Of a stretch of DNA of 64,000 nt, positions 29,946 through 64,000 are shown piece after piece. The DNA comes from Antedon mediterranea. Lineage: Eukaryota; Animalia; Echinodermata. Position 1 is the stretch's first letter; every line of letters begins with the position of its first letter. The DNA lies in the NCBI RefSeq assembly GCF_964355755.1, contig NC_092673.1, positions 9,796,001-9,860,000 of the forward strand. Direction: 5' to 3'. The position numbers and the translations under genes were made by a program. Under the pieces are notes generated by a model, which saw only the letters and a program-made list of their open reading frames with translations, had not been told where the DNA came from and searched no databases.

Positions 29946-30292
29946 TTAATTACACTTCGCTCTATGGCAAACAATTTACAAAAGATTTCATGGGGTTAAC
30001 TTTTCAGCTGATCTAGCTCATTTTTTTACCCTTTACAATGTCCCTCCTAGCAACACCCACCAAAATAAACACGCCAGACTGTCATTTCCATACATCGATA
30101 TGTACGTAGATAATGCACATGCACATGCATAGAAATTGGTAAACTTTCCAGAGAGCCTTTCCTCTGGGCTCCTGGTCTAATTGTATTATGTGAAAATGCT
30201 ACTTCCACCTATAAGAACTCTTACCTGAATTAGTGCCATAAAACAAAACTGAAATTCTTGTCTAAAAAATCTCCATTGAACCAGGTAGATGT

Positions 30293-35411: not shown

Positions 35412-35720
35412 TTATACAAAAAAATAAATTGATTACGAAGTTACATGTCATTTTCACCTATCACCAAAAAACTAACCTTTTCAAAACTAATTAATTGTTA
35501 CGAAGCCAATTTATATTATATATTTCATTAAAACTGAACTTTACGGTAAATGAAGAGTAAGTATCAGTTAATATGAATAATATAACTAGTAGGTCTATGA
35601 ACTTGCGTCCAGACACAGAACTGTGACATTACTATCATAAATGTTGAAACCACTTATAAAACCTTTTTTTTAAAGAAAATATAATTGTGTTAGGAGAAGA
35701 CTAATAAACAAATAGATAAT

Positions 35721-41300: not shown

Positions 41301-42323
41301 ATGTTATTAATGAGTTTCTTAGGTAGACTGTTCTTTGGGATGATGTTGACTTCTGCTCCACTGTCCAGTTGCAGGTCAATCAGTCGACCTTCCAAAGTCA
41401 TGCGCGCATAAATTGCTGTTGTGTTGACGTTGACCTCGACTACTCCGATTGTGTATTCATCTTCCGTTTCTACTTCAGACGAAGATGAATTAGCTATTTG
41501 GCTTACGTCCTTGGCGGTACCATTTCTTTGGTTTTGAGGCTTTGGATCTGCAGCATGCAGCAAAATGGTTTGGTTTATCGCACTTGTCACATGTGCGTCC
41601 CCTCGCAGGGCACTGTTGATGACTTGCATTATAGCCACATTTTCCACATTTCTTCGTCGAGTCTGATTTATGTCCCTTGTAATGTGAGGGCGCTGTTTTA
41701 TTATATCTTTTTGTTTTGTCAGTGTTGATTTTATGCACTTGGCTTTCGCCCTCCATCACCTTTAAACTTTCTTGGGATGTCTCATAATTGAGTGCAATGT
41801 TAATCGCTTTGTCAAGGGTTAGCTCATCTCCTACGTCAAGACATTTTTCTCTCACCTTGTGTTCCTTTGCTTTTACGACGATCGCGTCTCTCAACATTCT
41901 ATCCTCGTCATTGTACTCACAACGCTTTATCAACACTCTTAAATCGGTTAGAAATTTATTGAAAGACTCACGTAAGTCTCTTTGTGCCCGTCCATGAAAT
42001 TCTACGGTCACCTTGATGACGTTCTTTTTCGGCCTAACATAAAGTTCAAACCTGTTAAAAACACCTGTTAGTGTACCATTTTCGGCTGGCGTGGCTGGCT
42101 GGTCGTCGATCGCCTCGACGGCTGGCGCCCAGTCTAGTGTGTCGAACATTTCTCGGCTTCGATCCCCGAAGTATGTCATGAGGTAATTTACCTTCTGCAA
42201 CTCGGTTTTCTCAGATAATGGGCCGTTAAATGTAAATTGACAATGCTGCCTGAACCTCTTGAATTCTTTGTACAGGTCTACAGATGCCCAGTCCATCTGG
42301 GGCATCTTTGATTTCGTAGCCAT
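38377..42323 (-). pseudogene. Gypsy gag-pol (zinc-knuckle gag, protease LDSGA, RT VADD, RNase H CDAS, integrase DLF/SDNG/E) with frameshifts and a stop
   Basis: ORFs 41490-42356, 40787-41647, 40272-40601 and 38377-40125 lie in order PR-RT-RH-IN. Confidence 0.93.
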
Positions 42324-42448
42324 AATACTGGAATGTTCGGTAATATAGGCTAGCAAACACCGCTTGTCACCATGTTGTGTTTCTCTATATTTAATTGACT
42401 CACACGTACAGACATATACAAGACAGACACGTCTTCACTTGGTAACAG

Positions 42449-42948: not shown

Positions 42949-44050
42949 GGGTGTCACGAAACCTAAGACCACGAAAGCTAAGACCCCCTAAGACCTAAGA
43001 TCACGAAAGCTAAGACCCAAGACCTAAGATTACAAATATTTATCTTTCGCACCTGCCTTGTATTTTAACTCCCAACATTTATTCTGAATACCACACCTTA
43101 GAATTGGCACTTTTATGAAAAAGAATCACATAAAAAGTAACAAATACAATTTTAAATTGATGATTTTACAGACGTTTTTCTCGCACACAAACTGTTTGCG
43201 AATTTCGCATGACTAGCCTACAGAGTACAGTAGGCCTACCCCTGTTCAATGTTTTTGTTTCTATGGAACGTCAAAAGAGCAAAAATTATATAGAGGGCTG
43301 AAAACTCTGTGGAGTCCATCTACAGTGTGGATGGAACAATGTAAAATTAAAATTGTAATGATAATAGTATATCATGCAAGTACGAAGAAAGAAATACTGG
43401 CAAATAAATTTTAATTTAAAAATCATGATAATAAGTTTTTTTGTTTCGTTTTCTTTCTGTTTTTATACTTGCACTATATGTTGCTCTTTTGGCGCTTCAT
43501 AGAAACAAAAACATTGAGCATGGGGGGGGGGGGGGGCTCGAGGAGTTATCTCTATGAGTATACAAAGAAACATGTCTGTAAAATCATCAATTTAAAGGAT
43601 TTATTTATTTGTTTTTATGTGTTTCTCCTTCTGAAAGTACTTATAAATCCTAATTTTAAAGTGTGGTATTCAGGATAATGTTAGTCAACAAATTTGGAGT
43701 CAAAATACAAGAAAGGCAGGTGCGTAAGAAAAACATTCTCTGAACCAACACAATGGAGTAAATATATACCAACAAACAACCCGTCAAGTTTGTTTGTTGT
43801 AAAGAAAAACTATACATTTACTCAACGGGCGAAAATAATGTGAGTTTATCCATGTTTTGCGGTAGTATTTAATTATATTTATGGTAATAAATGAAACCTA
43901 CTGTGTTTAAAATTATGTATGGATAAACAAGTATTGTTTTTAAGCTGTAGTATATCTTAGAATTTGCAATCTTAGGTCTTGGGTCTTAGCTTTCGTGATC
44001 TTAGGTCTTAGGGGGTCTTAGCTTTCGTGGTCTTAGGTTTCGTGACACCC
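42949..44050. mobile_element. Mutator-like MITE with repeat-built TIRs
   Basis: TIR gggtgtcacgaaacctaagaccacgaaagctaagacc... (~85 bp); 10-bp TSD atataaagag/atataaggag (1 mismatch). Confidence 0.85.
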
Positions 44051-44927
44051 ATATAAGGAGTTACGACATTGGATTATAGTCACGTGATATGCAGATGAAT
44101 TTGTGTCAAACTTGTCTCCGTTAATGCATGTAAAGTATAGGAGCAAGAAAATACTTTAAACTTGTTCTTATATTTAATAAAATGTAATTGTACATTTTAC
44201 GGTGAAATATCGATGTGCACAGCGTACAGAAGTACTTGCGGCAAAGAATATTGCGCGCGCGTGCGCTAGTACATTATAAATTTCGATTGATTGATTTTGG
44301 AACGAAACATCCCATAACTACGTCCTATTAATAACAATTATGTAATATTTTCAATTCATAATGCATTTTTTGATGGCTAAATAAAATAATAAAGTGTCGT
44401 GGATATATTTGTTAATATATTGAATAGGGTATGAACAATATTAAAATATTAAAGGCAAATTATTACAAATGAAATGATGAACGATCGGTCTCTGAAAGTT
44501 TGTGTCAAAAACACACAGAGAGCCATATACTGTATAAAAAGAGGGGTAAATTTGTGTGTTTTTTGTATTGGTTCATGCTTTGATGTATTCTGAATTACAT
44601 GTAGGCCCTAGCATTTATTCTTTTGTTATTATTGTTAAAGTGTGCTCTCATTATACAATAAATGTTACCAATAGCCTACTGGTCATTCACCTATAGATAA
44701 GTGAAAGTTCCTGTTCTAAGAAATAGATGATATACCGGAACTGTCCTCAGATCACAAAGCAATCCATCATTGCTTTGCTCACTCCTTAAGATGATAACAT
44801 TCTTCTATGTGAATCACTCACATATTTATTCCTACTGTGTAGATGTGTACTTTGTATAGTTTATTACAATAAAGTTATTATAGTTCTAGATAGAACATTT
44901 GTATCTGCGTCAAATACTGTTATCGAT

Positions 44928-45632
44928 ATGGCTCACAATCCTACAACCTTAACAGGTTATGGGCCCAGTAAACGGCTTTTATTTAATGGAGACGAAACTA
45001 AGTACGAGTTGTGGGAAGTCAAGTTCCTAGGACATTTGCACATACAAAAATTAAGTAAAATTATTGTACCGGAAAGCGAAGGTGGAGTAGCCGCTCCCGA
45101 TGAGGCGAAAAATAGTAATGCGTTCGCCGAACTTGTGCAGTACCTGGACGATAGAAGTCTATCTTTGATAATGAGAGACGCAAAGAACGATGGAAGAAAG
45201 GCTCTAGGAATCCTGCGGGAACATTATTTAGAAAAAAGTAAGCCAAGAATTATATCACTATATACTGAGCTTACCTCATTAAAAATGGACGAACACGAAC
45301 GTGTAACTGACTACGTTATTCGTGCAGAAACAGCAGCTACAAGTTTAAAAACTGCTAAAGAACAAATTAGCGACAGTTTGCTTGTGGCTATGGTCCTAAA
45401 AGGACTACCTCAGCGATTCCGGACATTTGCGACCGTGATAATGCAAAAAGAAAAAGAGATAAACTTTACCGATTTTAAAATTGCGCTGAGAAGCTTCGAA
45501 GAGTCGGAGAAGGCTCAAAGAGAGACAAAAGATGATAGTGTAATGAAAACACTAGAAAGTGAAAGAATTGTATGTTTTAAATGTGGGAAGCAAGGCCATA
45601 AATCCTTTGAATGTAGGATCCATCCAATCTAG
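44928..45632 (+). CDS. Copia gag (starts inside the LTR; truncated by deletion)
   Basis: TGYGP..RLLFNGDETKYELWEVKFLG, CCHC knuckle. Confidence 0.85.
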   Translation: MAHNPTTLTGYGPSKRLLFNGDETKYELWEVKFLGHLHIQKLSKIIVPESEGGVAAPDEAKNSNAFAELVQYLDDRSLSLIMRDAKNDGRKALGILREHYLEKSKPRIISLYTELTSLKMDEHERVTDYVIRAETAATSLKTAKEQISDSLLVAMVLKGLPQRFRTFATVIMQKEKEINFTDFKIALRSFEESEKAQRETKDDSVMKTLESERIVCFKCGKQGHKSFECRIHPI

Positions 45633-46456
45633 AACCCCAACCTGAGGACCAAAGGGTAATTAATGAATCGGGTAACGAAAATGTAAGGTATCCAAGACGG
45701 GAGAGAAAACCTCCATCGTATCTTGAGGATTATGCTACCGATTTAGAGGACAATAATGACCAATTATTATCCAGTATTGATTATTGCTACAAAATGTCAG
45801 AGTTTCCTCAAACTTTTAGGGAAGCTATTAATTCACCAGAGTCCAAGTATTGGCAAACTGCAATGGCAGACGAAATGAAATCCCGTAAGGAAAATAACAC
45901 ATTCACTTTAACTAAAGACTGAATAATCACTACAGGTATGAATTCAGTGGGAGGACGATGGGTGTACACTACTAAAGAAACTGCCGATGGTTCAAAGAAC
46001 TATAAGGCAAGATATGTTGCAAAAGGGTATAGCCAAATAAGAGGTGTAGATTATAATGAAACATTTGCTCCAACTGCCAGTATGACATCCGTACGTATTT
46101 TGATGCAAATTGCAGCACAACATGATTTGATTTTACATCAGATGGATGTGAAAACTGCTTATCTTAATGCTCCAATTGACTGTGAAATTTATATGGAGCA
46201 AGCAGAGGGTTTTGAAGTCCCTACAAATTCTAACAAAAAGTTAGTATACAAATTAAATAAATCACTGTATGGTTTGAAACAATCTGGCAGAAATTGGAAC
46301 AATGTATTGCATACTTTTCTATGTGAAAATAATTTTGTACAAAACCCTGTTGATCACTGTGTATACACTAAATATGTAGAAAATGAGATGATTGTACTAC
46401 TCATATGGGTGGATGATTTAATTATTGCAACAAGTAATGAGTCCGTGATGACAAAT

Positions 46457-46596
46457 TCAATTCAATTCAATTCAATTCACATTTATTTACTCATCGTTTA
46501 TAAATACAGTTTCATAGCATAAATGATGGCAAGGATCCTGCATAGAGAAGTTTACACTTCTGTTTTCGCAGGACCCTTTTACATAAAAAACATAAA
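46457..46596 (-). mobile_element. Short L2/CR1-type 3'-end insertion with (TTGAA)n tail
   Basis: TSD ACAAAT; minus strand has a stem-loop, AATAAA and a (gaatt)n tail; removal restores VMTNVKEMLK. Confidence 0.75.
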
Positions 46597-46877
46597 ACAA
46601 ATGTTAAAGAAATGTTAAAAAGTAAATTCCATATGAAAGATCTTGGTAAACTTTCATATTTTCTTGGTATTGATTTTAAACAATCCAAAGGTTCCGTAAA
46701 AATGAATCAAAGTCGATATATAGCAAAAATGCTAGACAAATTTGGAATGACCGATTGTAAACCAAGGTCTACTCCATGTGAACAGAAACTAGAATGTAAT
46801 AGCCAGGAGGCCATTGACCCTACAAAATATCGTGAAGTTGTAGGTAGTTTAATTTATGCTATGACATGTACCCGGCC

Positions 46878-48114
46878 GCGATTTTTTTTTTCGTACATAA
46901 GTTGGGGACCCCCTCATGAAACGTCACAAAATAAACATGAATAATTCATCAGTTAAATTTTCTTGTTCCGTGTGCACCCAAGCGTATAGCAACAAGAAGT
47001 GATTACACAAGTGCGGTACGATTCTAGGCCTATCTCCGCTGTTGAAGAATAGCGGCGTTTTGTGTGGATTGTCGAAATAATCGGCCTTTAGTTTATGGTG
47101 TTTTTAATAAAATTTATTACTAAAGAATTACGTGTTAAAATTATAGTTTCTATTAATACTATTAGGCCTAATTATTAGTCTCTAAACCCATGTCTATTCT
47201 AGTAGTAGCTGTGTGGATGTGTGTGACGTGTGTGTGTGTTAGGTATGACCAAAGATAGTTACACTATCTTTGGTAATAGTTACACTATCTTTGGTATGAC
47301 ACAATCCGAGTAATAAGTCAGCAAAATTAAACAATTAACATTACACAAAAATACATTTTTTATTCTCGTGGGTCAAATCTTCCCATCTCATGTGTTCATA
47401 TACGCGCATTTTTAAAGTTCCTTTGAGTACATTGCATATTGTTTGATAATTGATAGCAGAATTTAAAAAATACAGTACACAAATTATACACATTCTTTAT
47501 TCTTGTGGGTCTAAGCTTTCTTTGGGCTATGTCCAAGAACGCTTGGGTGCACACGGAACAACAACTGCGATACGATTCTTTCTACAATAATAGGCCTAGG
47601 ATTCTAGGTCAATTCACGTGATTGCCTTCGCGCACTCTTCTTCACACACACGTCCACTATGCAAAATGTGTCGAGGCTAATCGACAGCTAGGCAAAACAT
47701 TAAACTAAGTAGTAATTGGACATAGCCCAAAGACACAAGTCACACACACCCACACAGCTACTACTAGAATATACAGGGGTTTAGATTAGAGACTAGTAAT
47801 TAGGCCTAATAGTATCAATAGAAACTATAATTTTAACACGTAATTCTTTAGTAACAAACTATATTAAAAACACCATAAACTAAAGGCTGATTATTTCGAC
47901 AATCCACACAAAACTCCGCTATTCTATTATGAAATCGCACGCGGCAACCACAGCGGAGATAGGCCTAGAATCGTACCGCACTTGTGTAATCACTTCTTGT
48001 TGCTATACGCTTGGGTGCACACGGAACAAGAAAATTTAACTGATGAATTATTCATGTTTATTTTGTGACGTTTCATGATGGGGTCCCCAACTTATGTACG
48101 AAAAAAAAAATCGC
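46878..48114. mobile_element. MITE with ~165-bp TIRs inserted in Copia RT
   Basis: gcgattttttttcgtacataagttggggacccc... and reverse complement; TACCCGGCC on both sides; splits MTCTRPDI. Confidence 0.85.
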
Positions 48115-49334
48115 TACCCGGCCGGCCAGATATAGGCTGGATAGTTACAAAGTTGTCACAATATTTGTCAAATCCAAAAATTGAACACTGGGTGGCAGCT
48201 AAACATGTGTTAAGATATCTCAAAGGTACAATTAATCATGAGTTGTGTTACAGTAAGTGCTCTGAAAATTTAAGATTGATGGCTTATCCTCAGAGGACAG
48301 ACGTAGTACTACTGGCTACTGTTTTAGTTTAAATAATTGTGGTCCTCTTATTTCCTGGAAATCAAAGAAGCAAACCACAGTAGCACTGTCATCATGTGAA
48401 TCTGAATACATGGCACTAGCTGCAACAACTCAGGAATGTTTGTACCTTATACAACTATTAGATGGAATTGTTAGCGGATATCAATATGGGCCTATTCACA
48501 TTTTTGAAGATAATCAAGGCACAATTGCCTTAACTAAAAACCCAGTAAGTCGACAAAGGTCCAAGCACATTGACATCCGATATCACTTCATACGAAATGT
48601 ATTAAACGATGGTAAAATAAATGTTGTTTACTGTCCAACAGCTGAAATGGTTGCTGATATTATGACTAAGCCAGCAACAAAATTAAAGTTAAGTAAATTT
48701 AAGAATTTTATTTTTGGACAATGATGTGTTGTGATACACACACTGCACAATGTAATAATGTAATACATTTTATAAAATTAATATGGTAAATTAGAGAAAC
48801 ATTTTTATACTTTTATAATTTGATGAATATGCATGTTGTATTATATTTGATTTTTAATATTATTAGTATTACTATAAAATTAAGAAAAATGAGAACAAGT
48901 GGGAGTGTTAAAGTGTGCTCTCATTATACAATAAATGTTACCAATAGCCTACTGGTCATTCACCTATAGATAAGTGAAAGTTCCTGTTCTAAGAAATAGA
49001 TGATATACCGGAACTGTCCTCAGATCACAAAGCAATCCATCATTGCTTTGCTCACTCCTTAAGATGATAACATTCTTCTATGTGAATCACTCTTCCATAT
49101 TTATTCCTACTGTGTAGATGTGTACTTTGTATAGTTTATTACAATAAAGTTATTATAGTTCTAGATAGAACATTTGTATCTGCGTAAAATACTGTTATCG
49201 ATATGGCTCACAATCCTACAACCTTAACAATTATAGACACAATATATATATGTTACCAAATTAATACCATTAATACAATTAATTACTAAAATAAAAACGG
49301 ACTAAGCGTTATTTCAGGAGGGTTTCTTTTCTGC

Positions 49335-49655
49335 GAGTTGCGAGTTGCGAGTTGGAAAATGCGAGTTACGAGTTGGAAAATGCGAGTTGCGGGTCGGAAA
49401 ATGCGAGTTGCGGGTCGGAAAATGCGAGTTGCGGGTCGGAAAATGCGAGTTGCAAGTTGGAAAATGCGAGTTGCGGGTCGGAAAATGCGAGTTGCGGGTC
49501 GGAAAATGCGAGTTGTGGGTCGGAAAATGCGAGTTGCGAGTCGGAAAATGCGAGTTGCGGGTTGGAAAATGCAAGTTGCGGGTCGGAAAATGCGAGTTGC
49601 GGGTCGGAAAATGCGAGTTGCGGGTCGGAAAATGCGAGTTGCTGGTCGGAAATTG
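49335..49655. repeat. 21-bp tandem array (GCGAGTTGCGGGTCGGAAAAT)n, about 15 units
   Basis: Direct reading; source of the repetitive spurious ORFs 49286-49759. Confidence 0.95.
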
Positions 49656-51821
49656 CAAAAATAATTTTTCAAGGAGGTCGTACCATCCAAAAAAATAAAT
49701 ACATGAACCAAACAATCAGTAAATAAATTACAATTTAAATTTTGTTTAGTTTTTTTCATATTATGACCTGTTTAACAATTATAGACTAGTGATTCCTTTT
49801 TTAACATGGATGTTTAAAAATGGTTGAAATGAACTTATTTTGTATTTCAACACAAAACAATTATGTTATTGATACTTCATATTTTGAAATAATATAATTG
49901 TAAATATAGTAGATTAAAGTTATTATTTAATTTGTTTGCAATTACTGATAATGATACAATTACTAATAATGATACAATAAATTATGTACATGTATTTTTG
50001 CCTTGTTAAATGAGAAAATAATAATAAATTGGTAAGAAAAACTCACATTAAAAAGTACAGTTAGTATTGTTTACAGCAGGGAGGTGTTTACAGTATTTAG
50101 GTAAGCTGATTAATGATGATTAAAAACAGACATAATGGTTGGAGTCATCAGTACTACCTTGTGTACAGCAGATCCCATAAATAGGGCAAGGAAACACATA
50201 CCATACCTACAGATAATGGTCAAATTTTCAAAGCTATATTATTTTCTTAGAAATCATAGTCAATTCTTTATGTTTATAATATTTTTTTGTTAAACATTTT
50301 CAGACAAACTGTCCATAGATACATATAAATACATATGAATACAAAAAAAAGAGAAGAAATACACAGTTTATTATGTGTAACACCCATCAGAAAATCATGG
50401 AGAAGACCAATTAATGTATCTATTGAAATATAGTGCATCTCTCCAATTAAAATACATTCTGGAATCTAACCATATATTCATAATCTAACATTTTGTTTGC
50501 TTTTCATAATTTTGGAAAGAAGACTGTAAATTGTCAACCTAAAAAATTCATAAGAAGATGGAATATTGTTTTCTACAAATAATTTTCTCTGACTTAGATA
50601 TCGGAGTTGACAACAACAACATGCGGAATAAACACAAATACATGCTTTAGTATGTACACGTACAGTGCAGTAGGCATCTGTCAAATGTACTATGTGTATT
50701 TAAAGTAACTTTAGCAGGGTACAGATGTAAATACTGAAATCACTGGTTTGTTTTTAGAGAAAATATAACTTATAACTAAGATAATTCAAATTTACTTGAA
50801 TTGAATTGTTGAATTTAGGTGACAATAATCATTGATCTGCGCCCACAATTACATAGGAGAAGGAATTATTATTACTTATATACAGTATTGTTTGATGAAA
50901 TGTGTGATACAGTAGGTGAAATGAAGTTGTATTTTAGTTGTTGTTCAACGCGATGATCAAATATACAACACACTAAGAATGTAAAATTAAACTGTACATT
51001 TTGTTTTGCAAGTGAAAAGATGCAGTAGAGTCGCATATAAAAAACACTTGATCCTCAAATAAATGAATACACAGAATACATTAGAAAGTACTGGAATCAA
51101 CACAGTGTTGCTTGCTTATGAATTGGTTAAACTGACTGATTAAATGAGGAGATTGCACCCTTATTTATATCTTATTGATATATGGGGGTGCCAATTATGA
51201 CTTCATCGCATAACTTAGAGATGAGAATAGTTAGTTTTTAGATGAAACTTAAATGACATCATCATCTTTAAGAAGAAATTATAGATGACATCATACCAAC
51301 TTTAAGTCACAATCCCTTATTTGGTATAGTACACAACAAGTGTCCATGACAGGTAAATTTATGGGCCCTTTGGGAGTACCTAGTACAAAAGTCTGCATAG
51401 TGTAGTGCTGACTTATACAAGTAATAATATGTTAACAATTATATGAAAATGATTGTGTAAATAATAAAGTTAAAAGTAAAGTCTAAAAGTAAAAATGCAT
51501 TAAAAATCATGTGGTGGGCTAAACTGTCAGGCTTCTTATATTTATTAGTAGGTAGCAGACACAAATCTACAATGTGGACCTTTATCAAAGCAGTCATTAA
51601 TTGTTTTAGTAAAAGATACCTGCCCCAGGGTGGGAGTTAATTGCTTCATGGAGACCTTGATGAAGAATTCATTATCTTTTAAACCTACCACCAACCCCAC
51701 CTCAGCTCCTCCTCCCAACCAAGATCCACATACCATACATCCCTGAGATTATTTGATACAACATTACCTCTAAATGCCAGTATTTCCTTATACATGAACA
51801 TTCAAACAAACAAAAATAAGC

Positions 51822-52286
51822 AAGTTAAAAAAAATCTGCGAGTTAAAAAAAAATCTGCGAGTTAAAACAAATCTGCGAGTTAAAAAAAAATCTGCGAGTT
51901 AAAAAAAAAATCTGCGAGTTAAAAAAAATCTGCGAGTTAAAAAAAAATCTGCGAGTTAAAAAAAAATCTGCGAGTTAAAAAAAATTTGCGAGTTAAAAAA
52001 AAATCTGGGAGTTAAAAAAAAATCTGCGAGTTAAAAAAAAATCTGCGAGTTAAAAAATTTGCAAGTTAAAAAAAAATCTGCGAGTTAAAAAAAAATCTGC
52101 GAGTTAAAAAAAAATCTGCGAGTTAAAAAAAATTTGCGAGTTAAAAAAAAATCTGCGAGTTAAAAAAAAATCTGCGAATTGAAAAAAAATCTGCGAGTTA
52201 AAATAAAATCTGCCAGTTAAAGACAAATCTGCCAGTTAAAGACAAATCTGCCAGTTACAAAACAAATCTGCCAGTTACAAAACAAA
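51822..52286. repeat. ~18-20-bp tandem array (GCGAGTTAAAAAAAAATCT)n, about 25 units
   Basis: Direct reading; shares the GCGAGTT core with the 49.3-kb array. Confidence 0.95.
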
Positions 52287-53430
52287 TGCTTGATTTAAAA
52301 ACATAAATGTTATATATTTATCAGTTATAATTGGATAACCCTTCTCTTTTAACATTTTAGTGAGCCACTTGAGTGTTCATTTCGATTTTAATCTTTTGGA
52401 TTTTGAACTCTTTACTTTGTTTTGTTTTTGTCTGATGAATGAAATAAATGAAAAAATATACATATTTGAAAATTCTCACTCTGTTTATATATGTGTGTGT
52501 GTGTGTGTGTGTGGGGGGGGGGGGGTATTAAGGTGGCACATAAGGAGATACTGGCATGTTTGCATTAGTAGTTATTATTTGTTTTTTGTACTAAAAACAA
52601 GTTAAATTAAATCAATGGCAATCACATAGATAAAAGAAGATAAAAGTTAGAACGCAATCAAGTTTAAACTATGTTATGTCCGACAGCTTCAGGCCCGTAG
52701 CCAGGGTGGATTTTTTATGGTTCGGGTGAAAGTATTTATTCTCTCGTTACTATCATCATTATATCATTACCATTAAAATTATAATTTTACATTGTTTCAT
52801 TATCCACATAAGTGTACATTGATTCATTGTATTGATTGAAAACATATTTTCACAAATCATATTAAAGAAGAAACTTGATGTAAAAAAATATTGAGTAATA
52901 CAGTAGCCTGGATTTATTTATATATGTTGTGAAGCTTTTAACGCTGTGTAGGCTACATAAGCCTGCAAACTCTCCTCCTACCCATCCTAGTAAAAAGTAA
53001 AAAAAAATCACTTGTGCCGCTTCCTTTAATATAGTAAGGGCAACAAGGGCCTTGTATATAATTACTAGCCCAGATACTAGCCAGGGCGGGAGTACGTTGT
53101 TGCATTGATGAAAGTTTAGAGAATCGACTGTCAATAGAAATAATGATATATATTTCAATCTTTTGTGGTGGTTTCCCATCTATTTTTATAAAATGTAAAT
53201 ATCAATCAATGCAGAAAGAAGTAAAAATAGAATGTAACATTCTCGGCTGTATATTAAATAATACAGATGTTTATAACATCTGCTTTAACTGTGTAATGTG
53301 TCATATTGGATACGGTAATGATTGAAATTGTTTGGCTCGCCTTCATAGGGTCAACTATATTGTGTTTTGAGAATATACCCTTCCCAGCATGTCAATCAAG
53401 CGAGCTGCCTAAATCTTCTTTAGGTTTTTA

Positions 53431-53688
53431 TTTTCGTATATTTGAGTCTCCCTTTTCCTATATTTTCCTACTTTTTGTATATTTGGGTCTCCCTTTTCGT
53501 ATATTTAGGTCTCCCTTTTCGTATATTTAGGTCTCCCTTTTCGTATATTTGGGGTCTCCCTTTTCGTATATTTGGGGTCTCCCTTTTCGTATAGTGGGGT
53601 CTCCCTTTTCGTATAGCGGGGTCTCCCTTTTCGTATTGGGTCTCGGGTCTCTGGTCTCTGGTCTCGGGTCTCTAGTTTCGAAACACCC
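53431..53688. repeat. Tandem ~21-23-bp units (gggtctcccttttcgtatattt) ending in a Mutator-like terminus gtttcgaaacaccc
   Basis: Terminus resembles gtttcgtgacaccc of the MITE ending at 44050. Confidence 0.75.
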
Positions 53689-54034
53689 GTCAAAACACCT
53701 ACCGTATTTAAAAAATACATGGCCAACCTAAAATCAAAAGTGTATGGTTTTTGTTCATTAATGAAAACTAATTGATCACAGAGGCTTGTACTAGTAGGCC
53801 TACTAATAACATGGGTGGCATAGCTTATCAGAATAGTGTCTACATATCGTCTATTGCCTTATCTAATCATTAAAACCTCAGACTCAACCATAAATTAAAT
53901 CTGATCCATCCTCATTGTCTTTATTTTGTATTACTTTTAGAACGAAATGATTGGACAATTAGTTCAATTTTGGGGGGTTAAGTAAAAAAGTTGACACAGA
54001 AAGTATTTAGTTCATGAGATGATCACAAGTCATA

Positions 54035-55058
54035 ATGGCTTTCAAAATTCCTACATTATCTGTATCTAAGAAGAAAGTGTATGATATTTCAGGGATTCAA
54101 AAATTTGATTGGAGCGAAATCTCATTTCCAAATGAGATTGGGCGCGGGGCATTTGGTATTGTACATCGAGCTACATACAAAAACAAACTAGTTGTGGTAA
54201 AACAAATTATTACCGAGGATGAAGAATACAAAAAATGATGGCCAAGGAATGCAAACTAATGAGTGCTCTTCAACACAGGAACATAGCAGATTTTAAAGGA
54301 GTTTGTGAACAACCTTACTCTATTATGGTGGAGTACTTATGCTTTAGCTTTAATCCATTTGGATTTGCAAAACAAGTTAATGATCTCTCTCAGTGGTTAA
54401 CTGCTATTGACCAATTAGAGGATGTATCAGATATGAATGATTTCTCGTCAATAATTGTTGCGGACATTGCCAATGGACTAGACTATCTGCATCATCTTAA
54501 CATTATACACAGAGATCTAAAACCACAAAATGTGCTAATCTCCAACAGGCATTATTCTGAAATTAACTGTGAAACTTCAGAATTTTACAGGGAATTTCAA
54601 AAGTGTCCCATTCATTGTAAATTGACTGACTTTGGGGAAAGTAGATCTGACTTCGTTCAGACTAAATCACTTGTAAACAATGCAACAGAAAATGTCCATC
54701 GTGGATCTATGCCATATATGGCTCCTGAAATCCTAACACATGAATCACAGTTTAAAGCAAGTATAAATGATCTGAAGAAAATCGATATCTGGGCATTGGG
54801 AATGACGATTTATAATATCTGCAATCCTGGGGTAAAATATCCATATGAGCTTGACACACAGGAAAAAAGTCAATTTCGGTTTCAGAAGTTTTTGATAAAT
54901 CAATTAAAGAATGGCAAGCGTCCATCACATTCTACAAAATACAGTGATGTTCAAAAAACAAAATGGAAGAAGATAATGAATATATATTTTCGGTGCACCA
55001 TAGTAAATCCACTAGCCCGTCCAAAAGCTTCATGGATAGTCCGAGAATTAAAAAAATG
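54035..55058 (+). CDS. Protein kinase domain (Ser/Thr or TKL-like)
   Basis: IGRGAFGIV, VVVKQI, HRDLKPQNVL, DFG, GSMPYMAPE, DIWALG, NPLARP. Confidence 0.92.
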
Positions 55059-58000
55059 GTAAGTACAGTTTATTTTGTGACTATAAAATCAATAATTCTT
55101 TGTAATTTAATATAGTGCATTATTGTCTTTGTAATTTTATATTATTAAAGCTCAGGCAGGCATGATTTTTATTTATTATTATGTCGGAATAAATGTACAT
55201 AAAGAAAAAAATTATGGTCAAATAATTAAGAATTTGCCAGACAAACTTTTTCAGTAGTTATGTAGGTATGCTTTAATCTGATTTACTCAACTCTAGAAAG
55301 TTATAAAAGTGCAAACAAATTATATATGAGGATATATAGTGGATAAGTTTTGATATAGCACAAATATAAAAATCTGAAGTTAAATATAAACACCAAAAAT
55401 AACAAATTCAAGTTAATAGTCATCTGATACATTTTTTTACCAACCCGCTTTGTAAGTTAAGAATAAAATGAAAAGTGAATTTTATGTTCAGTGTTGAAAC
55501 CTATCTAAATTGTCATTCTATTACAGTGGTGGTGCTAGTACTAGTAGTAACATTGATGACTGCATTGACATTTCTGAAGATGAAGCCAAGTCTAGTAAAA
55601 GTGTACCTCATGAAAACAAGAGTCTTAATGAACATGACATTGACTGCAGGTAAGAACAGATAATTCTGGGTTATTACATCACAAATTGCGTAGTACAAGA
55701 CCAAAACAATTTATATTATAGAACGTTACAAGCTATAAATTATCTGCTGCTAACTTTAAGATAAAACAATTGATATTACTCAATTTAAAGTAAACTTTGC
55801 CTAAAATTTTAAATCCATTCTTTATTTTATTAATTAGTGACATTGATGACTGCATTGAAATTTCTGAGGCTGAAGCCAAGTCTAGTAAAGGTGTATCTCA
55901 TAATGAACATGACATTGACTGCAGGTAAGAACACTAAACAAAAATTAATCCATTATAACATTAAACAGTAATTCTATTATATTGTATTCTCTATCCCTAG
56001 ACAATTACCTAATTTACAATAACTGACCCGAACAGAAAATAACTGTTAATGATCTGTATAGAGAGCAATTTTTATTTTTCATTTCATTGGTCGATTGCAT
56101 TATTCTATTCTTAATGATAATAATAATAATAAAGTTATCGGAAAATGGAAAACTTGATTACTTAACAAGTTCGTTTCAGTATGCAAGACTATTTACAAAA
56201 AAAACAAACAATTAAAAAAAAGTAAAAGAATGTGACTAAACCAATTCTTTATTTTATTAGTAACATTGATGACTGCATTGACATTTCTGAGGATGAAGCC
56301 AAGTCTAGTAAAAGTGTACCTCATGAAAACAAGAGTCTTAATGAACATGAAATTGACTGCAGGTAAGAACAGATAACACTGTGTTATTACATCACAAGAA
56401 CAAACCCTTAAAGACCACTTTATATTAAATTGATTACATCATGATTTAGTAAAAAAAAATGTCCAGTATATTATAGGGAACTTTAAGATTTCTCATATGT
56501 CTGTATTCAGTTTACGTCTGCCTTATATTCCTACTTTTTTTCAATGCTAGTAAACTCTATAGAGGATTAGTGTTATCTGAAAGATCTTTAATTTAACATG
56601 ATGTATTGCAAATAGTAACAAAAGAGGTATGGCAAGGGAGAAGGTGAATGCTGCCATTAAGGATAAAACAATTGATATTCAATTAAAGGTATTTTTCGAA
56701 AATTAGCCTTAAATGTTTATTCTGTTCTTTATTTTATTAGTAACATTGATGACTGCATTGACATTTCTGAGGATGAAGCCAAGTCTAGTAAAAGTGTACC
56801 TCATGAAAACAAGAGTCTTAATGAACATGACATTGACTGCAGGTAAGAACATTACTATGAAATATGATCTTTATTTGATGATTTCAATAAAATTCTTTGC
56901 TAATGTAACAATCGCTAAATAAATATGTTAAACTGACACCCAATTATATAATTTAATTTATTTTATTCTTTCAGTACTGCTCGACAGGCTTTTCAGTACA
57001 GAAGACCTACTAGTGAATTGACCATGGTATGCTAATAATTTGTTTCTAGTTTTAAAAATACAGTAATTAACAAAATTTTTAAAGCTGTATTGTCCCCAGA
57101 AAACATGAAATATGAAGATAAAATAGACTTTGTAGTTTTAATTAATAAAGTTAATCACTTCCATAGGGAAAAAAAGTCAATCTGACCATTGTTTTGCCTT
57201 AAATAACAGTTGTTCAGATAAAAAATAATGTTTGGTCAAAGTGAATAACTATAACTATATTCAACAAAACAACTTAATTTAACGTTTTTTTGTAAACTTT
57301 GCCTGAAATGTTTATTCTTTTATTTATTTTATTAGTTTCTAATTTTGTTATGATACAGGGAAATCAGGATTTTGTTATAATGGGAGATTTTCATCAGGCT
57401 TCCGAGGAACAATTCTTCCATGATGCTGCAGGTTCTCAGTGCTGCTCCATAAGTATAATGGCGATAGTATTCAGCAAAATGAAAGCATCAGTTAATTGGA
57501 CTAAAGATATCATTCATGATATAATGATGCAAGGTGACGCTGTCCATGTGTCAGCTTTAAGAAGGTTGGGATGGCCAGATAAACGAAGAGAAAAAACACT
57601 TGATGTTGATGAGCTACCAGAAATTTGGAGCTATACAGTAGATGGAAAACATATGAAAGCCAGTGTTGGTACGCTTGAAGGTGGCAAGTTTGGCTATAGT
57701 TTACACAATTTGCTAACCGAGTCACTTGTCATCAATTCATGCTCTTATCTGCTAAGAATTGCAGATAAATGCACTGCCATCATAAAAGATTCCAGTGAAG
57801 GATGGAGTCTATTTGACAGTCACGCCTGTAACTACAAAGGGCAACGAGACCCTGATGGTGCAGCAAGTATGACAAGGTTTGGGACAGCAACAAGGTTAAT
57901 TGAACATTTAGCAACATCATATCCTGATGATGGACGACAAATTGATATTTTTCCAGTTTATGTGCAGATATTAGGTGAAGATGAAGGTAAGCAATCTGAG

Positions 58001-60551
58001 TTTCTAAAATCATTATATAGACTGAGTAATAAAATAAAAATAATGATAGTAATTTATAATTATTAAAACGCTTAATTGCACACTGTTAAATTTGCAAGTT
58101 AAAAAGGAATTAAATCTTCCAACCCTCTATTATTAGCATCTATTTTAAAACAATTTTATAACATGACTATGCATATAATTTGGATTTAATTTAAGTTATT
58201 ACATATTTTGAGGTGAAATTTCCATTTAAATAATAATCATGATAACAAACTTTCTTGTGTTAGTATCGCATGAGTTGCAAACATTTCAGTTTTGATGACA
58301 TCATCAAGTCCAAACATGGATTACTTAACTATACACTATTATATAACACATAAATAAATTCATATAAATTTACAGTATTGGACAATTGTGGGTCACATGA
58401 TTTTAATAATTTCCATACAAAATAATGTACCATAATTGATTAATGTGACATTAACAATCAATTTTATTTATTTTAGATAATGAATCTGATTTGAACGATA
58501 CAGATGACAGTTCTGACTTCTCGATGAGATATAAAAATAATAAATATGACAAAGAGCACTGGAAAGAATGTATGCCAAAACAAGTCAACACACTGCCCTT
58601 TGATATCAATGGCTTAGAAGTTTATCATCTTTCCTGCAGTAAACAAAGTGAAATGATGAAAGTTTCAAAGGACGGAAGGCCATGGAACCGTTACTGCAAG
58701 ACTTCACGAAAACACTTTAAGGGGGTACGACGTATTTCACACTGTAAAGGATCGCCAATATGTAACAACCCGGAGTGCACATATCTGAAAATGTATGGGT
58801 GTCAAAACAGAAGCCAATTCGGTAAAGAGACGGGCATATTAGTGTGCTACACATGTGGGAAGGCAGCAGATCATGTAAAATGTTATGCCACGAAGGTATG
58901 GGAATACAGTAACGACATGGTGGTTGTTATGCATACTGGCTTCCACACATGTGTAGCAAAAAAACCAAATGTTTCTGTGGCCGTCATTGAAAAGGATATA
59001 AAACAGCATCCTGGTCTCAAGCCAAGTGCCATCGTTTCGGCCAAAATAAACGCAATCATGACCTCCAACAGCTTCAAGTGGAAAGATGTGGATGAGTTAG
59101 CTGAAAGATATAGTGAAATGAAAAGAGTCCACAATGCAAAGGAAAGGTTGAAGCAGGTGATGTTGCCACTTGGTGACAATTTTGAAGCTCTCGCGGATTT
59201 TAAACAGAAATGCGAGGAAAAGGATAAGTACCTAATATATCAGATAAATAACAGGACCTTTAACAACAAACATAGTTATGTTTTCAAGTCCAGCAAACAA
59301 ATGGCAGAACTGGCTCTATCAATGGACAGAGACCAAGATGGCATATTGTCAGGTGAATATGCCTATGTTGACGGCAAACATAACCACTGTAGAGGTTATG
59401 TTACGATCACATTATGGGTTTACCATCCAGTAATGAGACGAGTTGTTCGCCTTGCAGTGTGTGACACAGAGAAAGAGGACACCACTAACCTTGAAACATT
59501 TTGGAATGTTTTCAACGAGATGCTCTCTAACGCTGCTGGACGAACAGTAATTTTCAATCCCTGTGGTTTTGTTGCAGATGAAAATCATGCCAACTGGAAA
59601 AGTATCAAGAATGTGTTCGGCGATGATGGAGTTCGTAGAACTGTATCCTGCGAATTTCATTACAAGCAAAGTGTACAACGCCATTCAAAAAAAAATTCCG
59701 CAAGATGATGCTGCACAATTCATTGAGATTGCAAATTCTATGCTCACTGCATATTCCCTTACTGAACTTAATGAAGCATGCAAAGAAATGACCAAGTTCA
59801 CTGAGAAGCATCAAGTTCTTCAGAACTGGTATTCCTGGTGGTATGCTCGAAGAAGTCATATTTTTTGGGCTTACAAACCAAGTGATGCACCAGTTTCAAA
59901 CTTGGCTGAGGTAGGGCATGCTAAAATGAGTGTGTCAAAGCAAAAAATGTCCCTTTTAGAAGCAGCTAGGCAAGACGTAATCGATGCCATTAGACAACAA
60001 CCTGAGATTAACGGCTTCAAAGAAGGTCAACATAAGGGGAGGGGGGGGGGGGCAGAGGAGAAAGAGCAAATAAGAAAAAAGCATTGAAATACCGCAATGA
60101 AAAGAAGAGAGCTGCTCAATATGCAGAAGAGGTGGAGCATCTCTTCATTCCAGATCAAGGGTCTCATCGTCCGCCAGAACCAAAAAGGAGAAAATTAGCA
60201 AAAAGGGCACCAGTGAACAATGACGAGCATCCAGTATGTGTTTGTTTTTCAACGATGGTAATTAACCTTAAAACATGCTATGGGTGCAAAGAAAGATTTT
60301 CAGATCGCTATAGAAAAGAGCCAAATTATGTCATCTTAAAAGTCAACCTGAAAAGGAAATATACAAAAGATGGCAAAGAACATGTAGCATCGAAGGTATC
60401 TGCAGCCTACTTTCACCTAAACATGAACTGCGTAAGGAAGGTTAAACCGTACGCAGAAATCAACGAGATAGTCATTCACAATGAGGTAAAAGCACTCTTA
60501 AGAGCAGGACACAAACAGGTTTTAAAAATATTTGGAATGAAAGCAATATAG
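54035..60551 (+). CDS. Putative spliced kinase-deubiquitinase-GCM-like-MULE transposase fusion (~1,400 aa); exons 54035-55058, 55527-55649, 55838-55924, 56261-56362, 56741-56842, 56975-57026, 57359-57986, 58477-60551
   Basis: All junctions are GT/AG with phases 2,2,2,2,2,0,1 matching; three frameshifts, all in homopolymer runs (~54230 A6, ~59687 A9, ~60041 G12). Confidence 0.75.
57359..57986 (+). CDS. Herpes large-tegument-like (peptidase C76/VTD) deubiquitinase domain
   Basis: GDFHQ...F...AGSQC, W...I..I...GD.., LFDSH...G..DPDG. Confidence 0.75.
58477..60551 (+). CDS. GCM/WRKY-like Zn DNA-binding domain, Mutator-type DDE transposase and C-terminal Zn finger
   Basis: CKGSPICNNPEC...CYTC...C...HTGFHTC; YVDGKH, VADENHA, VF....CEFHYKQ, NLAE; CYGC...YFHLNMNC. 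Confidence 0.75.
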
Positions 60552-61657
60552 ATTTGGAGGCTGCTATTTTTTAAATAATATTAAAATACAGTGTGATCAC
60601 TACCCATGAATACTTATAACTTGACATTTTATTATAAATACATCATGTAAACTTTTGGATCTCTGTGTTTTTTGGGGGTTGGCTGGGGAATGTGTTTATG
60701 TTGAACAAAGCTACAATATTTTAAAATATATCTGTTCTGTTAAGGGTATGTTCAGACTCACAGTGTACGGTTTGTTATCTGACGCAAGACGTCAAGGTGT
60801 TCAGACACAACGATCAACATTCCAATGCTTGCATTTAAAACACTCTGATAATCAGATCTAAGCAGATTGAACTATGTATACATTCATGATGAAAAATGCA
60901 TTACAGTTTACATTGTAAAGTTGTTTTTTGATATTTTTATTTATACAGTATAATGTTACCTTCAAAATACTGATTTGTTCTTACTACTTGCAGAATTGCA
61001 TTCTAATTCAAAATAATTTCAAACACAATTAGCACACGGCCAATTATCTGATTATTACAGTATTGTATTTAATTTATGAAAATATATCGCTGACGTGAAC
61101 TGTACTTTAAAATTTAAAACCTGATAGTTTGACGGTCAGCGATCTCGATGTATGCCTGCTATTAACCGTGGTCGTGTCTTCTTATTGGTTAAGGTTAAAA
61201 TCACTGATGCCTCACTGGATTAGCATTATTAAATCTACCCTCTTCTTCAAGGGTTACTAACGCAACTGGTGCGGCGTAACAGCTCCCTAACGCTAATCCG
61301 TGGCCTAGTTCACACACAAAAATATGTACGCCGCTTACATAATGCCACCTTAACTGAACATATCCTAAAGCAAACATATTCCTTATTATCTTTAGTTACA
61401 GAATTATAACAAACAAGTTCTATCTTGTAATAAACAGTGCTTTGAAACACGAGGTTTAATTAATAACCATAAACTTAAATATTGTTTTTAATTCTGTACA
61501 TTTTTATTTTTAAGAAAGGTTTTAGAATTCAATATTGTCTAGAAAACAATTCTTTTTAAAGGGATTTACAGTACAATCTATATATAAATTTACGTAAGGG
61601 CAAAATTCGGTAAATCGCGCGTTATTTCTAGAATGTTTACTCGATGGTATATAAAGT

Positions 61658-62033
61658 TGGTTTTGTTGCAGATGAAAATCATGCCAACTGGAAAAGTATC
61701 AAGAATGTGTTCAGCGATGATGGAGTTCGTAGAACTGTATCCTGCGAATTTCATTACAAGCAAAGTGTACAACGCCATTCAAAAAAAATTCCGCAAGATG
61801 ATGCTGCACAATTCATTGAGATTGCAAATTCTATGCTCACTGCATATTCCCTTACTGAACTTAATGAAGCATGCAAAGAAATGACCAAGTTCACTGAGAA
61901 GCATCAAGTTCTTCAGAACTGGTATTCCTGGTGGTATGCTCGAAGAAGTCATATTTTTTGGGCTTACAAACCAAGTGATGCACCAGTTTCAAACTTGGCT
62001 GAGGTAGGGCATGCTAAAATGAGTGTGTCAAAG
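61658..62033 (+). pseudogene. Near-identical duplicate of the transposase core (59564-59940), interrupted by an LTR element
   Basis: GFVADENHANW...HAKMSVSK; differs by about 1 substitution and A8 versus A9. Confidence 0.92.
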
Positions 62034-62534
62034 TGTAATAAATTACCATTCCCTAACATATAGAGTAACATAGTATTTACATGAACATTCTAGAATAAGA
62101 TGTTTTGATTTAAGAAACCATGTATAATTAATAAGAACAATCAAGAACATTCCAGAAGTGCTATTAATAGAAACTGTAATCATGTAATAATGAGAAGTAT
62201 AAGGAATGATCTAGAAGGTTATGAACATATTGTATATAAGGGGAAGTATGACAATTGTAAGAGGGAGAAGGATTTTTGATTGAAGCATTTATTTTGAAGA
62301 AGGTTGTTGGATTAGAGGTTGGATTAGAGGTTGGATGTTATATTGTAAAGTCATTGTGAAGCTGTTGTTTAAAGTGCTTACTGGATTGTTAAAAGTTGAA
62401 GTTGATTGAAATTAAAGCTTTGTTTTGAGTTATTTTACAACTTTGTGGATTTTGTGTGTATACTTTTATGTCACAAGGGAGTTCCTAAAGTATTTTCAAC
62501 CGCTCGGAAACATACGTGAGAGGAGTTCGTGACA
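62034..62534 (+). mobile_element. 5' LTR of a Gypsy element, followed by a tRNA-Leu-type PBS (62540-62552)
   Basis: TGTAATA...GTGACA, TATATAA and ATTAAA inside, then tggtggcagcggt; 3' LTR is outside the window. Confidence 0.8.
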
Positions 62535-62863
62535 TAATTTGGTGGCAGCGGTTATTTCGATCTACTGTTCGACTTAACTGTGTATTTATCTACGGTTGTG
62601 ATATTTTGTGTAGCAGTTTGATCTACTGTATTTTGCCATAGATTGGTGGCTGTTTTAGGATCAACTGTACTTTATTGATTTTGTGAAAGCGGTACTTACG
62701 ATACTGTGATATTTTACGGAAGCCGCGGTGCTACGTTTTGTTTAATCGTAAGTACACAAACATTGTTTTAAGAACACTACATTGTTTATTTGGAACAGTA
62801 GACTTGTGAACGTCTCGGTAACTACGATTAACTAGTAACAAGACCCTCATCCAGATTTAAAAT

Positions 62864-64000
62864 ATGGCTGATAAACAATCAACAACAAGATCCGGTAGAG
62901 AATACAGCGGCGGCGATGAAACTGATTCGGATGTAGAATCAGTTCAATCAGTACAACCTGAACAACAGGCAGAAGAGTCTGGACCAACCAGTGGACATAA
63001 CCCTACAGGGGCTGACTCATTTTCAAAAGATTTGTTGTTGTTGATGCAGCAGCAAATGCAACAGCAAATGCAACAGCAAATGCAACAGCAAATGCAGCAA
63101 CAAATGCAACAGCAGAATCTTATGATGCAGCAGATGATGGACAGACAAGAACGTTTACGTAGGGAAGATATGGAGAAACAGCAAGCATTAGTAATGGCGT
63201 TAATGGATAAGCAAAAGGACAGTGAGGAGAAACGATTAAAGGACATAATGAGATTGAAGGAAGTTCAGATTGCAAAACTTTCTGATAGTGAGGATATTGA
63301 AAATTATCTTACTACGTTTGAACGAATTGCTAACACCTATGAGTGGCGAAAAGAACACTGGGTAGTAAAACTAATACCTCATTTGACAGGCAAAGCAAGA
63401 GCAGCCTATGCATCACTACCAGTGACAGAAAGTAACCAGTACGATATAGTGAAGAAAGCAATATTACAAAGGTATGACATAACTGAAGAGACATATAGAC
63501 AAAGGTCAATTAAAAAGAAAAGTGAAGAAAGTTATAGAGAAATGTATGTTAGGTTGAAAGACTTATTTACTAAGTGGGCTAGGCCTGCTGATAAAAGCAA
63601 AGAGGATTTAGCTGAAATTGTTATTTTAGAGCAATTAATAGATATTATGCCCACAGGGGTACAAATTTGGGTTAAAGAACATAAACCAGATTCTGGATTA
63701 AATGCTGCAGAATTAGCAGATAATTATTTTCAAGCTAGAAAAGGTATCGATTTTGAGAAAAAGTTTCAAAATAGAAAACACGAAAATCGAAACAACCAGG
63801 AGAAAACAGTGAAAGGCACTCCTGAAGTTGACACTAGAGATCATGCTAGAAAAGAAAAACTAAGAGAGGAAAACGAATTAAAGTCGGAAAAAGCTTCTGG
63901 GGTTATTTCACATCAGTTAGATGATGTGGTTAATTTTCAAGAAGAATTTGGACATTTAGATGGCCAACTACTCAGTAACAACCCTCCCAAGGAAAAAGTT
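62864..64000 (+). CDS. Gypsy (Gmr1-like) gag with SCAN-like capsid C-domain; open to the window end
   Basis: EDIENYLTTFER..W...W...L.P.LTGKARAAY...Y..VKKAILQRY...ETYRQR...ILEQL...WVKEHKP. Confidence 0.88.
   Translation, partial: MADKQSTTRSGREYSGGDETDSDVESVQSVQPEQQAEESGPTSGHNPTGADSFSKDLLLLMQQQMQQQMQQQMQQQMQQQMQQQNLMMQQMMDRQERLRREDMEKQQALVMALMDKQKDSEEKRLKDIMRLKEVQIAKLSDSEDIENYLTTFERIANTYEWRKEHWVVKLIPHLTGKARAAYASLPVTESNQYDIVKKAILQRYDITEETYRQRSIKKKSEESYREMYVRLKDLFTKWARPADKSKEDLAEIVILEQLIDIMPTGVQIWVKEHKPDSGLNAAELADNYFQARKGIDFEKKFQNRKHENRNNQEKTVKGTPEVDTRDHARKEKLREENELKSEKASGVISHQLDDVVNFQEEFGHLDGQLLSNNPPKEKV

Follow-up and report, generated by a model that had tools for sequence, protein, structure and literature searches.

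Foldback-type Mutator-like elements (MULEs) such as Muta1, Tm1, Phantom and Rehavkus encode transposases with a D..D..CxxH..E core, a helical insert, a conserved Trp and a DNA-binding domain of the WRKY-GCM1 fold. Their long inverted ends, a known feature of MULEs (PMC3169594, sections on these elements), consist of tandem subterminal repeats, with units of 12 bp in Muta1 and about 14 bp in Tm1 in the sections describing them. Papain-fold proteases of ubiquitin type fused to MULE transposases are also known, as an OTU domain in MuDR-6_HM and a C-terminal OTU domain in Medicago MULEs. Proteases of the VTD class, for which an Asp-x-His motif is diagnostic (PMC9741609), are known from Helitrons, with the enzyme DrT1-VTD2 solved as 8ADD, and from herpesvirus tegument proteins (M48, 2J7Q). 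Here we describe a locus that joins features of these systems to a protein kinase. It lies in a 64,000-nucleotide stretch of the echinoderm Antedon mediterranea (positions 9,796,001 to 9,860,000 of contig NC_092673.1, assembly GCF_964355755.1), hereafter the window, in whose own numbering all coordinates are given. The locus is most likely (probability roughly 75%) a damaged foldback-type Mutator-like DNA transposon in which one predicted protein combines a kinase, a likely deubiquitinase, a DNA-binding domain of predicted GCM fold, a DDE core and a zinc finger. This kinase-deubiquitinase-transposase architecture is well supported, and the mechanism given below is a proposal.

The locus shares with the foldback MULEs the core motifs, the helical insert, the conserved Trp and a DNA-binding domain predicted to have the WRKY-GCM1 fold; long inverted ends made of subterminal repeats are seen in one of its relatives, L001. 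Unlike them, it has a GCM-type domain with a second zinc site in place of FLYWCH or FAR1, and an N-terminal kinase and VTD; unlike in described MULEs, its core stays below the cut-off of the MULE profile PF10551. The protease differs from those of protease-bearing MULEs in being of the VTD/C76 class and in standing after the kinase and N-terminal to the DNA-binding domain. Described VTD carriers are rolling-circle Helitrons, whereas here the carrier is most likely a Mutator-like transposase with a kinase. Table 1 of PMC6446971 lists 50 MULE groups, none with a kinase or a VTD, and the main text of PMC9741609 mentions cnidarian VTDs fused to "several transposon-associated domains" and names neither Mutator nor a kinase. 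The word "kinase" does not occur in the main text of PMC6446971, PMC9741609, PMC1702500, PMC6431247 or PMC13359780. A literature search that did not extend to Repbase, to subscription journals or to FASTA supplements of MULE surveys, where the family may already be recorded, turned up no description of a kinase-Mutator transposase fusion, in agreement with the original prediction, which knew of no described kinase, C76 and MULE architecture.

The predicted gene is on the plus strand and has eight exons. Exon 1 (54035-55058) encodes a Ser/Thr-type protein kinase. Exons 2 to 5 (55527-55649, 55838-55924, 56261-56362 and 56741-56842) are predicted to be four duplicated acidic, Ser-rich repeat exons, each of phase 2-2, and exon 6 (56975-57026) is a predicted short linker exon of phase 2 to 0. 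Exon 7 (57359-57986) carries the VTD/peptidase C76 deubiquitinase domain, with the Cys codon at 57440 and Asp-x-His at 57815-57823. The first part of exon 8 (exon 58477-60551) encodes the GCM-like DNA-binding domain with eight Cys/His ligands (58477-58960). Its middle part (59240-60040) encodes an RNase-H-like DDE core, with D at 59370, D at 59577, CxxH at 59649-59660, E at 59908 and a helical insert bearing a WW-R motif, and its end (60041-60551) encodes a basic linker and a CxxC..H..C zinc finger closed by a stop codon at 60549-60551; the same finger terminates the relatives described below. All seven introns are bounded by GT and AG, with donors GTAAG (6/7) or GTATG (1/7) and pyrimidine-rich acceptors, and the phases 2,2,2,2,2,0,1 are those first proposed. 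From the kinase to exon 8 the frame is uninterrupted over 1,044 codons, and the spliced model, with X placed at three homopolymer breaks, reaches the 1,397 residues originally estimated with no stop. The expected motifs are present: GRGAFG, VVVK, KE, HRDLKPQN, DFG and APE in the kinase, QC..DSH in the protease, the eight Cys/His ligands, the DDE residues and the terminal CxxC..H..C. We regard the fusion of kinase to transposase as very probably real.

In a Pfam scan of the window protein, the kinase was significant (PF00069, E=2e-27), Herpes_teg_N fell below its cut-off and the transposase part had no match. An alignment of the window kinase with eight relatives showed the Gly loop, the Lys-Glu pair, HRDxKxxN, DFG and APE to be complete in the window, with X at the break, and in the seven complete relatives. 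The window protease matched PF04843 at E=0.0018, below the cut-off, and PDB entry 8ADD by sequence at E=0.004, an alignment in which the QC and FDSH residues of the two coincide. It is 61% identical to the VTD of an Anneissia japonica gene model, P0072. A single-sequence fold of the window protease, with a predicted local distance difference test score (pLDDT) of 31.4, was set aside. The corresponding middle domain of the relatives resembles 8ADD, 8ADB and 2J7Q by fold, and its atlas neighbours are PF04843 clusters at 0.95. The marks of a VTD, a catalytic Cys, a later Asp-x-His and the VTD fold, are therefore found, the residues in the window by comparison with 8ADD and the fold in the relatives' domain. 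The window protease, anticipated as C76-like, is a likely deubiquitinase as judged from its sequence.

For the DNA-binding and catalytic domains, conservation was examined in an alignment of relatives (A2). The eight Cys/His ligands are near-invariant across 108-113 aligned rows. The catalytic D, D, C, H and E are kept in 116/116, 110/110, 113/113, 109/110 and 92/92 of the rows that have a residue there, and the WW-R motif is likewise conserved throughout. An AlphaFold model was made of the protein of a related locus, L001, from the protease to the C-terminus (118-row alignment, mean pLDDT 79.3); residues 201-321, with pLDDT under 50, form disordered linkers. Its top Foldseek matches were the transposase of ISCth4 (E=1.2e-4), 1ODH (1.5e-3) and 8ADC (1.7e-3). 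The wide VIA search aligned 244 residues with ISCth4 (Z 12.4, root-mean-square deviation 5.5), 167 with 8ADD (Z 11.8, deviation 4.0; M48, Z 11.1) and 124 with the animal GCM factor 1ODH (Z 8.0, deviation 3.8), compared with 74 for WRKY domains; Hermes and the P element scored Z 10.6 and 9.1. Likeness of the terminal finger to PARP-1 Zn2 reached Z 6.6 at most. ISCth4, a member of the IS256 family, is thus the best fold match of the catalytic region, although it is bacterial and only 10-12% identical. The top viral fold match, O92526 (E=1.6e-11), is presumably a bracovirus Phantom MULE. The DNA-binding domain has a predicted GCM fold, and its zinc-ligand spacing resembles that of GCM. It shares with animal GCM factors the fold over 124 residues and the eight zinc ligands and differs from them in sequence and in sitting in a transposase, so that the GCM-like domain of the original prediction holds by fold only. 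Atlas neighbours of this domain were GCM, FAR1, DBD_Tnp_Mut and FLYWCH clusters, all under 0.9, which we treat as a lead only.

The kinase-transposase layout recurs in relatives. With 58554-59690 as the core query, 17 longer relatives were found among 4,616 candidates, and four of them (P0001, P0002, P0005 and P0007; core identity 47-53%) have the kinase and the core in one unbroken frame, as do P0079 and P0241. All single-frame kinase relatives except P0005 also have a protease-like middle domain. In P0005, a Ser/Asp-rich tandem repeat takes the place of the protease and is reminiscent of the acidic repeat exons of the window. In total, five independent protein clusters with about 45-50% core identity hold the kinase, the protease-like domain and the core in a single frame. 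In metagenome contigs, the three modules are ordered on one strand in 6/25 loci (five distinct elements), most of the other loci being short; in L001 they are joined through one GT-AG intron into an open frame of 1,400 codons. In P0072, the only longer relative found for the window protease, the VTD joins the core at the position of the exon 7/8 junction (63% identity over 520 residues). A wider core search gave 1,347 clusters (at 50% identity) at E<=0.001, and no core relatives were found in viral contigs, prokaryote genomes or phages. A Pfam scan of 85 proteins, picked by length from the wider-search matches and two cluster lists, showed a kinase in 4, an OTU domain in 21 (with 6 of these above cut-off) and a MULE match below the cut-off in 17. 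Signs of multiple copies include three Sanderia gene models that are 91-95% identical, clusters with 101, 26 and 11 sequences, and almost identical copies spread over several contigs, some of which may be alleles.

The kinase and the protease also occur with a second transposase lineage. Among 7,987 scored candidates, all between 774 and 2,464 residues long, the kinase-plus-protease region of P0027 had 33 matches, ten of which stand apart (E<=1.4e-48, the next being 2.8e-10). Four of the ten have the window-type core and six a different one, in which D..D..CxxH..E can be recognized by eye, with SWIM matches in two and weak MULE matches in two. These six include two of the three Sanderia malayensis gene models and a Holothuria leucospilota protein. 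Of note, P0244 (KAJ8047258.1) of Holothuria leucospilota, named "kinase TAO1", is a fusion of kinase, VTD-like, MULE-like and SWIM parts. The two cores align weakly (hhalign 5.6%), though their D, CxxH and E motifs coincide. In a tree of 20 kinase rows, all 15 kinases from transposons group together (100/99), subject to a long-branch warning and with five weak matches as the outgroup. Those that accompany the second type of core are scattered over three positions in this tree, where the two mixing forks are unstarred and no clade test was made. A FastTree of 133 core rows, built without cluster members and without rows that cover fewer than 280 residues of the query, places the window as sister to the Anneissia protein. 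It unites all kinase-bearing rows but one in a single clade and most of the OTU-bearing rows in a second clade; the OTU label missed P0206 and P0204, both outside the OTU clade. The enzyme cassette appears from these comparisons to behave as swappable cargo.

These relatives bear on what the protease might do. The same transposon might use it to cut its own polyprotein, freeing kinase and transposase, instead of acting on host marks. Such a role is suggested in the main text of PMC1702500 for the OTU fused to Medicago MULE transposases, and the protease does lie between kinase and transposase beside long disordered linkers. However, the three Helitron VTDs assayed in PMC9741609 cleave ubiquitin chains, both K48 and K63, and are proposed in its main text to protect transposition proteins. 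The window domain retains the QC and D-x-H residues of DrT1-VTD2, P0005 has a kinase and no protease domain, and OTU substitutes for VTD in other members, which fits a shared need for a deubiquitinase. We therefore give polyprotein cutting a small share of the probability.

Evidence that the locus is a transposon comes from its upstream flank and from L001. The likely left end (49318-49656, plus strand) has a terminus starting with GAG followed by a 21-bp tandem array with the core TGCGAGT, its exact position being inferred from likeness to L004 only. A second TGCGAGT array (51808-52287, plus strand) has a 19-bp unit in 25.5 copies and the same orientation as the first. These two arrays contain 34 of the 35 copies of TGCGAGT in the window, none of which is on the minus strand, against 2.2 expected per strand. 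Both ends of L001 (11,137 bp) are formed by inverted arrays, at 1-395 and 10739-11133, whose 12-bp unit also has the core TGCGAGT; the two arms are 88% complementary. L004 is the same element (99.5%) and extends beyond the right end; the outer units and GAG start at 49318-49360 of the window resemble the reverse complement of that right end. Long terminal inverted repeats were seen in L001 and L004, which carry the window's motif, and not in eight other loci; the window itself has a left-end-like array only. The right boundary first placed at 62033 had to be given up: 61658-62033 (plus strand) duplicates 59564-59940 with 99.5% identity, is connected to the adjoining DNA by a short stretch common to both, borders on the start of a long terminal repeat (LTR) retrotransposon-like element and is not an element end. 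We take this duplicate to be haplotype-private or an assembly artefact, because read contigs of one sample (X1-X3) pass 59564 unbranched. The term "giant" was also an overstatement, the length being about 11-12 kb. With the domain calls upheld, the modules found together in unbroken single frames of diverged relatives, and a relative bounded by inverted arrays with the window's motif, identification as a DNA transposon with a Mutator-type transposase is very probable.

The state of the window copy was assessed with read contigs from four public runs (two samples) aligned to 53700-62300. Of the three homopolymer breaks, which had all been taken as indels to be corrected, the one in the A9 run (59687-59695) is an error or a private allele, because the contigs of 4/4 runs, and also the window's own duplicate, have one A fewer. 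Correction is likewise consistent with the G12 run (60041), across which one X2 contig is two bases shorter and would fit an open frame, as inferred from length. The A6 break (54230-54235) is different: no indel is seen there in the contigs of X1, X2 and X3, X5 giving no coverage, and this break in the kinase N-lobe, between its Lys and the alphaC Glu, looks real in the X1-X3 sample. Since the reads show the N-lobe break too, the window copy is probably kinase-dead. The stop codon at the break overlaps two ATG codons of the downstream frame (54235-54240), and re-initiation there could yield a protein that retains the protease and the transposase and misses no more than the N-lobe of the kinase. 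We rejected programmed -1 frameshifting at the A6 run, none of the relatives being broken at that site. The X5 contigs, presumed to be RNA, cross exon-intron borders with no splice joints and are therefore uninformative on expression; they also reveal a diverged second copy of the 3' part of the gene, with 59 differences in about 1 kb.

It is improbable that the locus is a host gene domesticated from such a transposon and now serving as a kinase-bearing DNA-binding regulator. This would suit its seven introns, compared with 0-1 in most relatives, the low number of variants that read contigs show across the coding sequence and the lack of a right end in the window. Against it, the kinase frame break is present in three runs of one sample, the upstream arrays match the terminal arrays of a relative, a diverged second copy exists, the catalytic DDE residues are all kept and the neighbours are copia-like, Helitron-like and gypsy-like elements. 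The ratio of non-synonymous to synonymous substitution rates (dN/dS) was computed for five pairs of loci and was 0.19 and 0.09 for two of them; two pairs with L008 were saturated, and a value of 1.20 for L003/L007 was discarded since the slice spanned a tandem duplication in L007. Purifying selection cannot separate an active transposon from a host gene.

Still less probable is a kinase that is a separate gene or dead cargo beside a VTD-GCM-DDE gene, with the repeat exons providing no link in the window copy. No RNA junction was seen, P0072 begins inside its VTD and has no kinase, and the window kinase is nearest to a Sanderia kinase of the other lineage (40% identity; 94/94, unstarred), whereas its core is sister to P0072. 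However, the kinase frame stops at a strong donor right at the end of the domain, and six more exons follow on in frame and stop-free; in 10/10 of the strong kinase-region matches, among the searched proteins of 774-2,464 residues, the kinase is N-terminal to a transposase-like region. Least probable of all is a core that belongs to a separate lineage of CxxH-bearing DDE transposases (hAT, P, Kolobok and kin), as might be argued from the PF10551 cut-off never being reached, from Hermes and the P element scoring close behind ISCth4 and from the family motifs not being found in text-form MULE survey supplements, since PF10551 matches cover nearly all 99 profile positions with no match to other transposase families, the WRKY-GCM1 fold of the N-terminal domain is characteristic of MULEs and ISCth4 ranked first in both fold searches.

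Several points weigh against the reading of the locus as a foldback-type Mutator-like transposon with a fused kinase and deubiquitinase. Exons 2-6 are placed by splice signals and frame alone, and no single protein was found that combines a kinase, the window's VTD subtype and the core; the middle domain of the relatives represents another VTD subtype and has no significant alignment to the window protease (hhalign 2.3%). The evidence by fold comes from L001 and not from the window protein. No sequence match to GCM (PF03615 or 1ODH) was found in Pfam scans of the window and 108 relatives or in PDB profile searches, which gave no relevant match with alignments A1 and A3. The residues and the ISCth4 fold match support the D..D..CxxH..E core proposed as a MULE DDE core; its Pfam standing is lower, as the window core has no match at E<=1 and PF10551 is matched in 6/16 and 17/85 relatives, mostly over its full length and always below the cut-off (best E=1e-5, 26.3 of 27.6 bits). 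Long inverted ends were absent in 8/11 loci examined, including L006 with about 5 kb upstream, and neither an inverted partner of the left end nor a right end was found in the window. The end of an apparently unrelated repeat-tipped element (53431-53689, strand unassigned, no partner end nearby) lies between the arrays and the gene, so that the arrays may instead be part of a distinct, non-autonomous relative. Target-site duplications were not observed in any of the available sequences, none of which has both outer ends with flanks.

The rest of the window contains many other elements. A copia-like LTR retrotransposon (44633-49229; LTRs 44633-44954 and 48906-49229, 99% identical; gag and RVT_2 matches) terminates 90 bp ahead of the likely left end; a 1.25-kb element that has long inverted ends of its own interrupts it at about 46871-48121. 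Downstream of the gene, 61576-61662 is the 5' part of a very high-copy repeat beginning TCTATATATAAA, which we presume to be Helitron-like; in reads it continues differently past 61662, the point at which the window passes, via about 13 shared bases, into the duplicated transposase segment. The start of a gypsy-like element occupies 62034-64000; its gag-like frame contains a SCAN domain (E=2.8e-20) as well as a Gln-Met repeat. A gypsy-like pol region is found on the minus strand at 38377-42434. The reverse-transcriptase-like frame at 35882-37099 stands amid 246-bp perfect inverted repeats (35719-35964 and 36955-37200) and is Penelope-like by eye. More foldback-like elements with inverted tandem-repeat ends occur at 19370-20294, 25068-32123 and 42949-44050, and 25068-26574 and 30293-31799 form a 1.5-kb inverted repeat pair (98%). 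Exons of a Notch-like host gene (EGF repeats, an LNR-like part, a transmembrane segment, an ankyrin end and a PEST-like tail) were recognized by eye at 11595-23500.

We propose that the GCM-fold domain would bind the TGCGAGT subterminal repeats and load many transposase molecules per end, as for Muta1, where subterminal repeats raise binding and excision (PMC5499845, sections on Muta1). The DDE core would then act by cut and paste with a duplication of 8-10 bp, the size given for MULEs in the same sections. The VTD domain would strip ubiquitin from the transposase or its neighbours and so allow escape from proteasomal clearance, and the tethered kinase would phosphorylate the complex itself, the acidic Ser-rich linker being a candidate, or host proteins at the ends. 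Host kinases reportedly regulate the transposases Mos1 and piggyBac. A counter-host role of the kinase and deubiquitinase is tentative, with somewhat less than an even chance. In plants, VANC proteins act as anti-silencing proteins. It is doubtful, and offered as speculation, that marine-invertebrate Mutator elements have a kinase family of their own as one half of a swappable kinase-deubiquitinase counter-defence, one that passes between transposase lineages and rewrites phosphorylation and ubiquitin marks where transposition takes place, comparable in animals to VANC, and that the family, through its two-zinc GCM-type domain, is the living source of animal GCM factors.

The family to which the locus belongs is large (1,347 clusters), missed by Pfam and mislabelled in databases, and it is a candidate transposase relative of the GCM domain. 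Intact natural relatives are at hand in P0001, P0002, P0027 and L001. A transposase with its own kinase beside a deubiquitinase would make the response of an animal transposon to post-translational control testable on one protein.

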